This document shows, piece after piece, positions 9,437-9,633 of a stretch of DNA of 64,000 bases. Location of the stretch: the NCBI RefSeq assembly GCF_030013205.1, contig NZ_CP122648.1. The stretch is one strand, 5' to 3'. The stretch's first letter is position 1; each line of letters starts with the position of its first letter. The position numbers were made by a program, and so were the translations under genes. The notes beneath the pieces are model-generated. The model did not search any database. It worked only from the letters and a program-made list of their open reading frames with translations, and was not told where the DNA came from. Source of the DNA: Escherichia coli. GTDB taxonomy: Bacteria > Pseudomonadota > Gammaproteobacteria > Enterobacterales > Enterobacteriaceae.

Positions 9437-9633
9437 CTGCTCATCCTTGTTTTATCGGGTTATTTGTCTGCTGACAGGCGAAACCCTACAGATTTATAAG
9501 AAAGCCTTAAGTGAGATATCTGTCAGATAAGAACAATTAGGAAAATATTTATATATATTTCATGAATATATGTTTCGATTGGTATAACGGTGTCTAAATA
9601 TTCCTCTGAACATCTTCCTGATACAAAAAAAAC

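Follow-up and report, generated by a model that had tools for sequence, protein, structure and literature searches.

A mostly silent rhs gene and its upstream control region at the rhsC locus of Escherichia coli, with a product probably stranded without a working T6SS

The interval 9437-9633 of the window (the whole 64-kb stretch of Escherichia coli DNA analysed here) is the already known control region of the toxin gene at the rhsC locus, and it is best explained as serving a stand-alone, mostly silent rhs gene as regulatory region and 5' leader, the product of this gene being probably a stranded effector without a working T6SS. The interval is located upstream of rhs because this gene, encoding 1416 amino acids, is read on the minus strand, from 9436 to 5186. 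In the mechanism proposed here, the ybfA terminator would close the far end of the spacer between both genes, and rhs would rely on a weak promoter of its own within the leader; nucleoid proteins such as H-NS would keep that promoter silent, with some particular stress letting it fire. The Rhs protein would dock to a VgrG spike through a Tse5-type 47-residue peptide and, the aspV T6SS having decayed in this clone, the rarely made protein would be left without its normal export route, as for the rhs genes of K-12.

The window was compared with the chromosome of E. coli K_EC180 (NZ_CP062203.1), a porcine strain and the closest complete genome, to which it is 99.994% identical with one mismatch and three gaps; K_EC180 was therefore used as a proxy, both to annotate the window and to survey the genome beyond it. 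The kdpE gene (window 17288-17965) is intact in the window and frameshifted in K_EC180, where cobC and other genes are also marked as frameshifted; this difference may be due to homopolymer errors in the K_EC180 assembly, or to the window coming from a sister strain. Of 5,426 complete E. coli genomes, 5,423 contain a match to an 851-bp probe spanning the interval, and in a group of porcine isolates this match is 100% identical.

Along the plus strand, the gene order is orphan rhs fragments, ISAs1 and IS630 remnants, the full-length rhs, ybfA and kdpFABCDE, and the locus is the classical rhsC locus of the E. coli chromosome. Its counterpart in K-12 MG1655, ybfA-rhsC (b0699-b0700), occupies this same site on the chromosome, flanked by kdpF/ybfA and by orphan rhs fragments accompanied by H-repeat (ISAs1) elements, and also carries a full-length rhs in the order ybfA, rhsC, ybfB. 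The two loci differ at the toxin end, where K-12 has ybfB whereas a 169-residue domain and a Sel1-repeat lipoprotein are found here, as well as in the length of the protein (1397 residues for K-12 RhsC versus 1416 here) and in the downstream orphan modules. Regarding the latter, positions 1-4628 of the window, downstream of the main rhs, hold an array of the typical kind, comprising two N-truncated rhs C-terminal fragments, small genes after each of them (DUF6258; a hypothetical gene and DUF3887), an ISAs1 (H-repeat) pseudogene, and IS630 and IS1 remnants. The interval itself makes up the rhs-proximal four fifths of the 244-bp spacer between ybfA and rhs, which shares 99% identity with its K-12 MG1655 counterpart between ybfA and rhsC, and 96% with that of EDL933. 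The features of the locus are collected in Table 1.

Table 1. Features in and around the ybfA-rhs spacer, in window coordinates
Feature	Position	Strand	Basis
Frameshifted putative immunity gene; sister strains encode a 159-aa Sel1-repeat lipoprotein	4694..5172	-	ORFs and alignment
RHS element core gene, full length, 1416 aa, annotated intact (WP_115206328.1)	5186..9436	-	NCBIfam, Pfam
Variable C-terminal toxin domain, 169 aa after DPFGL, 39.6% GC	5189..5695	-	DPxG...DPxGL motif, GC drop
DUF6531, N-terminal plug of the Rhs cage	9068..9301	-	Pfam PF20148, 66.5 bits, residues 46-123
PAAR-like peptide, N-terminal 47 residues	9296..9436	-	PAAR letters at residues 5-8; alignment to solved structures
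rhs leader block common to rhsA, ~140 nt, with mapped start position and ribosome-binding site	9437..9575	-	blastn and alignment
Complete ybfA-rhs intergenic region, 244 bp	9437..9680	-	ORF and annotation coordinates
Shine-Dalgarno AAGGA, 7 nt before the ATG at 9436	9444..9448	-	read from the sequence
Position homologous to EDL933 Cappable-seq start 807747	9476	-	alignment at 96% identity
ybfA intrinsic terminator: GC-rich hairpin 9659..9628, then 8-T run	9620..9666	-	terminator scan, inverted-repeat search
ybfA, upstream neighbour, same strand as rhs	9681..9887	-	annotation

The first-pass annotation had described the region upstream of rhs as AT-rich, and the composition bears this out. Its GC content is 32.5%, whereas the whole window has 51.3% and the rhs core 61.8%, and only 2.2% of equally long (197-nt) stretches are as AT-rich, which places the interval in the lowest ~2% of the window. 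Nonetheless, not all of it is promoter, since its distal 14 nt (9620-9633) correspond to the T-run and the foot of the ybfA terminator, whose hairpin contains 14 pairs, eight of them G-C, in the terminator scan. This terminator is strong and insulates rhs from upstream transcription, and rhs thus needs a promoter of its own; ybfA has its own TSSs in both K-12 and EDL933. Beyond the terminator, the other repeats in the spacer are just short AT palindromes and chance pairs. In the sister strains EC556, EC571, EC581 and CFSAN018748, an IS200C copy is inserted at ~9624-9632, at the T-run and foot of the terminator and ~190 nt upstream of the rhs ATG, with the proximal leader staying intact.

Promoter signals on the rhs-sense strand were then explored. 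Three -10-like hexamers are indeed present, as had been claimed (TATAAA at 9498 and 9553, and TATATT at 9570), but they are wrongly placed for the mapped start and their count is at chance level: three hexamers with at least 5/6 matches are observed, against 3.6 ± 1.5 in dinucleotide-preserving shuffles, so that their number is what the base composition predicts. A scan of 9200-10250 for consensus sigma-70 promoters returned 0 sites at 9/12 or better, and the best candidates of a relaxed scan either have spacers of 19 bp or miss the conserved T at the end.

Transcript data from a relative place a start inside the interval. For the ybfA-adjacent rhs of EHEC EDL933, Cappable-seq reports one gene start, at 807747, 39 nt before the ATG (PMC10469882, tables S5 and S7), detected in one of eight conditions, "stat salt" (stationary phase, LB + NaCl), with an RRS of 15.0 (PMC10469882). 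The homologous position in the window would give a 5' UTR of ~40 nt, the EDL933 spacer having two bases changed directly after the start relative to the window. This EDL933 start could be noise. The hexamer TAGGGT at -12..-7 relative to it keeps the three best-conserved -10 positions and is not accompanied by a good -35, suggesting that the promoter would be weak. For K-12, the TSS list of Kim et al. 2012 contains a start for ybfA and none for rhsC, the Conway 2014 and ROSE supplements hold nothing for an rhsC start, and an occupancy study describes the rhsC region as silenced; a further report covering rhsC and H-NS (PMC9546599) mentions rhsC solely as an incidental mutation.

A sigma-E-like CACTT-N16-TCTGT element was also found upstream of the mapped start, ending 11 nt before it. 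In sigma-E promoters, the motif ends 6-8 nt before the start. With its motif 3-5 nt too far from the mapped start, a sigma-E promoter is kept as a lead only. In genomic SELEX, a peak of RpoE holoenzyme in vitro falls within the ybfA>rhsC spacer.

Thus, the promoter suggested upstream of rhs finds support in the insulation by the terminator and in the start located inside the interval in a 96%-identical homologue, while being weak, non-consensus and condition-specific. We infer from these features a weak promoter that would be normally silenced and would fire only under particular stress. Silencing would be most likely exerted by nucleoid proteins acting on the AT-rich DNA, H-NS being a candidate.

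The rhs-proximal part of the spacer is not particular to this locus. By blastn, window 9440-9554 (115 nt by the ATG) aligns at 93% identity with the region preceding K-12 rhsA, and by eye the resemblance extends to ~140 nt, including an identical run of 67 nt, while the upstream regions of rhsB and rhsD are unrelated to this block in alignments. In addition, when an anchor composed of spacer, ybfA and kdp sequence, devoid of rhs coding sequence, was searched for, ~3,760 E. coli genomes showed a second place, which is an rhsA-type copy. The leader being common with rhsA and having this second genomic copy, the proximal block would be part of the rhs unit rather than of the ybfA flank, and would travel together with the rhs gene. 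Outside E. coli, scans of one genome per species for exact 24-mers and 20-mers of the leader gave no match; this leader may be restricted to strains of E. coli, or have diverged elsewhere. An Rfam search of the leader matched no family, giving only sub-threshold matches located on the ybfA terminator, and a structured leader RNA or riboswitch was rejected, the 156-nt leader folding no better than its shuffles (z = -0.28).

The protein encoded by rhs belongs clearly to the RHS core family. It scores 2631.8 bits with the NCBIfam equivalog RHS_core (NF041261), versus a cutoff of 2000, with residues 1-1247 covering profile positions 1-1261, and Pfam recognizes ten RHS_repeat copies, DUF6531 and RHS. 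The Rhs_assc_core is found at 1170-1247, with DPIG at 1221 and DPFGL at 1243-1247, after which the variable C-terminal domain begins.

The opposite end of the protein had been described as starting with a PAAR domain, a statement that holds for the letters P-A-A-R and not for a complete domain. Pfam PAAR_motif (PF05488) gives 16.1 bits versus a cutoff of 27, aligning at positions 51-69 of the 70 in the profile, and NCBIfam T6SS_PAAR_dom (NF033420) gives 15.3 bits versus a cutoff of 124, aligning at positions 68-94 of 94; both cover just Rhs residues 2-20 or 2-29, on the final third of the profile. The free PAAR protein of CFT073, taken as a positive control, reaches 64.6 bits over the whole profile; as a tblastn query against the 64-kb window, it finds no match. 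In alignments with the solved PAAR proteins 4jiv and 9rce, Rhs residues 2-29 fall on the last (third) repeat (residues 67-93 of 4jiv). Canonical PAAR proteins (PF05488; the T6SS-1 PAAR of CFT073, VCA0105/4jiv) share with Rhs the PAARxGD...GGxIxxGSxxVxIG repeat, but they contain three of them in ~90 residues, whereas a single repeat is present here, the plug beginning already at residue 46-48.

On the contrary, the N-terminus agrees with that of the Pseudomonas aeruginosa effector Tse5 (PA2684; PDB 8cp6), the best solved homologue of this Rhs (E = 1e-123). The shell chain of Tse5 in that structure (8cp6_B) starts at P48, and its first residue is matched by Rhs residue 48 (E = 5e-16); a segment of ~47 residues is followed by P-V-N-P and the plug. 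Judged by its sequence, the N-terminus is therefore a Tse5-type 47-residue PAAR-like peptide, and not a full three-repeat PAAR domain. Over its first 140 residues, the protein is 99% identical to K-12 RhsA, RhsB and RhsC, with residues 1-47 identical; over this stretch, identity is 81-88% with RhsD and with the Rhs encoded next to vgrG in the Sakai T6SS island.

Tse5 is processed into a 47-residue N-terminal fragment, a shell and a toxin; within the fragment, residues 30-47 are enclosed by the shell, while the cryo-EM map shows residues 1-29 as disordered (PMC10684867). The Tse5 papers report that this fragment is needed for secretion and associates with VgrG1c. Both proteins have in common the 47-residue segment, the P48-VNP sequence and a plug (residues 48-124 of Tse5) homologous to DUF6531. 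They differ in that Tse5 lacks the literal PAAR letters present here, and in that it is cleaved at K47/P48, the putative site here being H47/P48. Moreover, Tse5 is encoded beside its vgrG and its host has active T6SSs; the toxin domain, pore-forming in Tse5, differs as well.

A closer relative is Sakai ECs0237, from the aspV island of EHEC (the "paar" gene of PMC7216683), which has the same architecture of a 47-residue PAAR-like N-terminus, DUF6531 and YD repeats, and is 81% identical to Rhs over its first 140 residues. ECs0237 begins 75 bp after vgrG, whereas rhs here stands alone behind a terminator; likewise, ECs0237 has a start just upstream that is active in most EDL933 conditions, in contrast with the almost silent rhs. 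The genes rhsA, rhsB, rhsC and rhsD are orphans outside vgrG islands, and their carrier VgrG, if any, was left as a question (PMC7216683). By homology, the PAAR-like peptide would be the part attaching the Rhs cage to a VgrG spike. The claim that a PAAR sequence implies T6SS delivery accordingly keeps in its favour the likeness to the Tse5 N-terminus and to the vgrG-adjacent Rhs of Sakai, both of them homologies only.

At the other end of the protein, the 169-residue C-terminal domain matches no Pfam family. The putative immunity gene lies 13 nt downstream of rhs in sister strains, being annotated as intact in ETEC1748 and others; in the window, its ORFs are fragmented by a frameshift, which the alignment assigns to a single-base difference, G9 to G8, in a tract at ~5093. 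The gene is intact in about half of the assemblies of this clone, and the G8/G9 change may be real slippage or an assembly error. The putative immunity protein resembles an exported lipoprotein, with a signal peptide and its Cys, which suggests a toxin acting outside the cytoplasm. In EDL933, Cappable-seq detects internal starts at 811650-811958, equivalent to the rhs 3' end (near window 5200-5600), both in the 3' part of rhs and just before the next gene, and these are stronger in stationary phase; the toxin end or the immunity region could thereby be expressed independently of the main promoter.

Regarding the secretion machinery, the absence of vgrG, hcp and tss genes from the 64 kb is confirmed in two ways: none is annotated in the matching stretch of K_EC180, and tblastn of 32 T6SS proteins, from both common E. 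coli types, finds no match in the window. The rest of the genome was surveyed by joining a window-specific anchor to pieces of T6SS genes and counting the matching places in K_EC180. The probes represented the Sakai-type T6SS-2 and the CFT073-type T6SS-1, at the ~85% identity or more that megablast detects, with the rare third E. coli type and divergent variants outside this range. The anchor alone matches two places, the second being an rhsA-type leader. The count stays at two when CFT073 tssC is added, and also with CFT073 tssC plus Sakai tssM, so the T6SS-1 tssC and T6SS-2 tssM probes reveal no further place by megablast. A longer anchor combined with tssC, tssM and two vgrG 5' parts matches three places, and exactly one vgrG-like place is thus found with these probes. 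Place counts are identical in 17 members of the clone.

T6SS remnants in K_EC180 lie 0.5 Mb and 0.12 Mb from rhs. The cluster at aspV (K_EC180 3954137-3969891, ~0.5 Mb away) retains tssB, C, E, F and G, tagH, tssJ, K and L, tssH, a VasL fragment and hcp, with an internal stop in tagH and a truncated tssH. Where present, it is 97.7% identical to that of Sakai, from which it differs by two deletions: one has removed hcp2 and vgrG along with the initial 2.3 kb of the rhs in the cluster, and the other most of vasL, tssM, tssA, vasI and the 3' end of tssH. A protein-level search of the examined K_EC180 loci also found no match for TssM, TssA or VasI. The metV site, which carries the other common T6SS type in CFT073, is empty in K_EC180, and a T6SS-1 there was rejected. 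In E. coli 042, the aspV T6SS has the same gene order as in Sakai and K_EC180 with protein identities of just 43-88%, indicating that at least two divergent variants occupy the aspV site in E. coli.

The lone vgrG-like place is located between cusS and nfrB (K_EC180 3581273-3585975), where a vgrG missing its C-terminal 29% is fused to an N-truncated Rhs, both annotated as pseudogenes; this Rhs fragment has a zincin-like metallopeptidase toxin domain. The C-terminal part of VgrG is where the PAAR-binding tip is located. The genome search for T6SS clusters and vgrG that had been proposed thus yields, on K_EC180, a decayed aspV cluster and one truncated vgrG pseudogene, and a complete core set (tssA-M, hcp, vgrG) is lacking in this strain for the T6SS types probed. 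The further suggestion of delivery by a distant T6SS locus is not sustained, the K_EC180 remnants being devoid of tssM, tssA and an intact vgrG and having a truncated tssH. With its T6SS wrecked, rhs is better called the gene of a stranded effector than taken as evidence for distant delivery. K-12 is not known to have a usable T6SS either.

Several observations have to be reconciled with this stranded-effector reading. The start was mapped in another strain, through a spacer that is 96% identical, and in one of eight conditions; in addition, the frame of 1416 codons is intact and its N-terminus is identical to that of K-12, which one would not expect of a relic without use and may point to continuing selection or to a recent loss of the T6SS. 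An alternative in which this promoter does express Rhs and a functional T6SS elsewhere in the genome fires it as an active effector would agree with the intact ORF, with an N-terminus homologous to those of the exported Tse5 and of the vgrG-adjacent Sakai Rhs, with the presence of a T6SS cluster 0.5 Mb away in K_EC180, and with the third E. coli T6SS type being outside the probe set. Nonetheless, this appears quite improbable considering that (i) the K_EC180 cluster has lost tssM, tssA, vasI, vgrG and hcp2, and has damaged tssH and tagH, (ii) neither T6SS-1 tssC nor T6SS-2 tssM was found elsewhere, the sole other vgrG lacking its C-terminal 29%, and (iii) the 17 clone members share the same counts. 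A role independent of the T6SS, either toxin-antitoxin-like inside the producer or with exit by lysis or vesicles, would explain why the gene is retained without a T6SS, both here and in K-12, where the ORF is likewise intact. Salmonella RHS elements are reported as type II toxin-antitoxin modules (PMC7043789), and the start responds to a condition, the internal starts in the rhs 3' end of EDL933 being active in stationary phase. However, the immunity protein looks like an exported lipoprotein, which fits a toxin outside the cytoplasm and not a cytoplasmic pair, and its gene carries a frameshift in the window with no evident harm, making such a role unlikely.

It might also be argued that there is no dedicated promoter, the AT-richness only marking the border between the GC-rich acquired rhs core and an ordinary spacer, and rhs being transcriptionally dead. 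The absence of a consensus promoter, the chance frequency of the hexamers, the missing rhsC TSS in the K-12 list together with the silencing of the region, and a leader RNA unstructured beyond chance (z = -0.28) and matching no Rfam family are all consistent with such a dead gene. It is weakened by the primary 5' end that maps in the leader in EDL933, by the 93% conservation of the leader between two rhs loci with unrelated distal flanks, by the good ribosome-binding site that is kept, and by the RpoE-holoenzyme peak in the spacer in vitro, so we hold it to be rather doubtful. Finally, an rhs with a one-repeat peptide, kept intact and expressed under stress without T6SS spike or membrane genes, might conceivably have a T6SS-free function or exit, with the 140-nt leader as its switch, possibly sigma-E-dependent; we regard this as very unlikely. 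The stranded effector behind a weak, mostly silent promoter is consequently retained as the probable explanation.

Altogether, the first-pass annotation is partly confirmed in what it observed and partly supported in how it interpreted it. Which VgrG, if any, carries the orphan Rhs proteins of E. coli is a question already in the literature (PMC7216683). The main use of the present analysis is in correcting the annotation: the N-terminus of this Rhs would be a Tse5-type peptide, its gene would have a weak promoter, active in a relative only in stationary phase with salt, and K_EC180, as well as, by the search counts, the rest of the porcine clone, has a wrecked T6SS.
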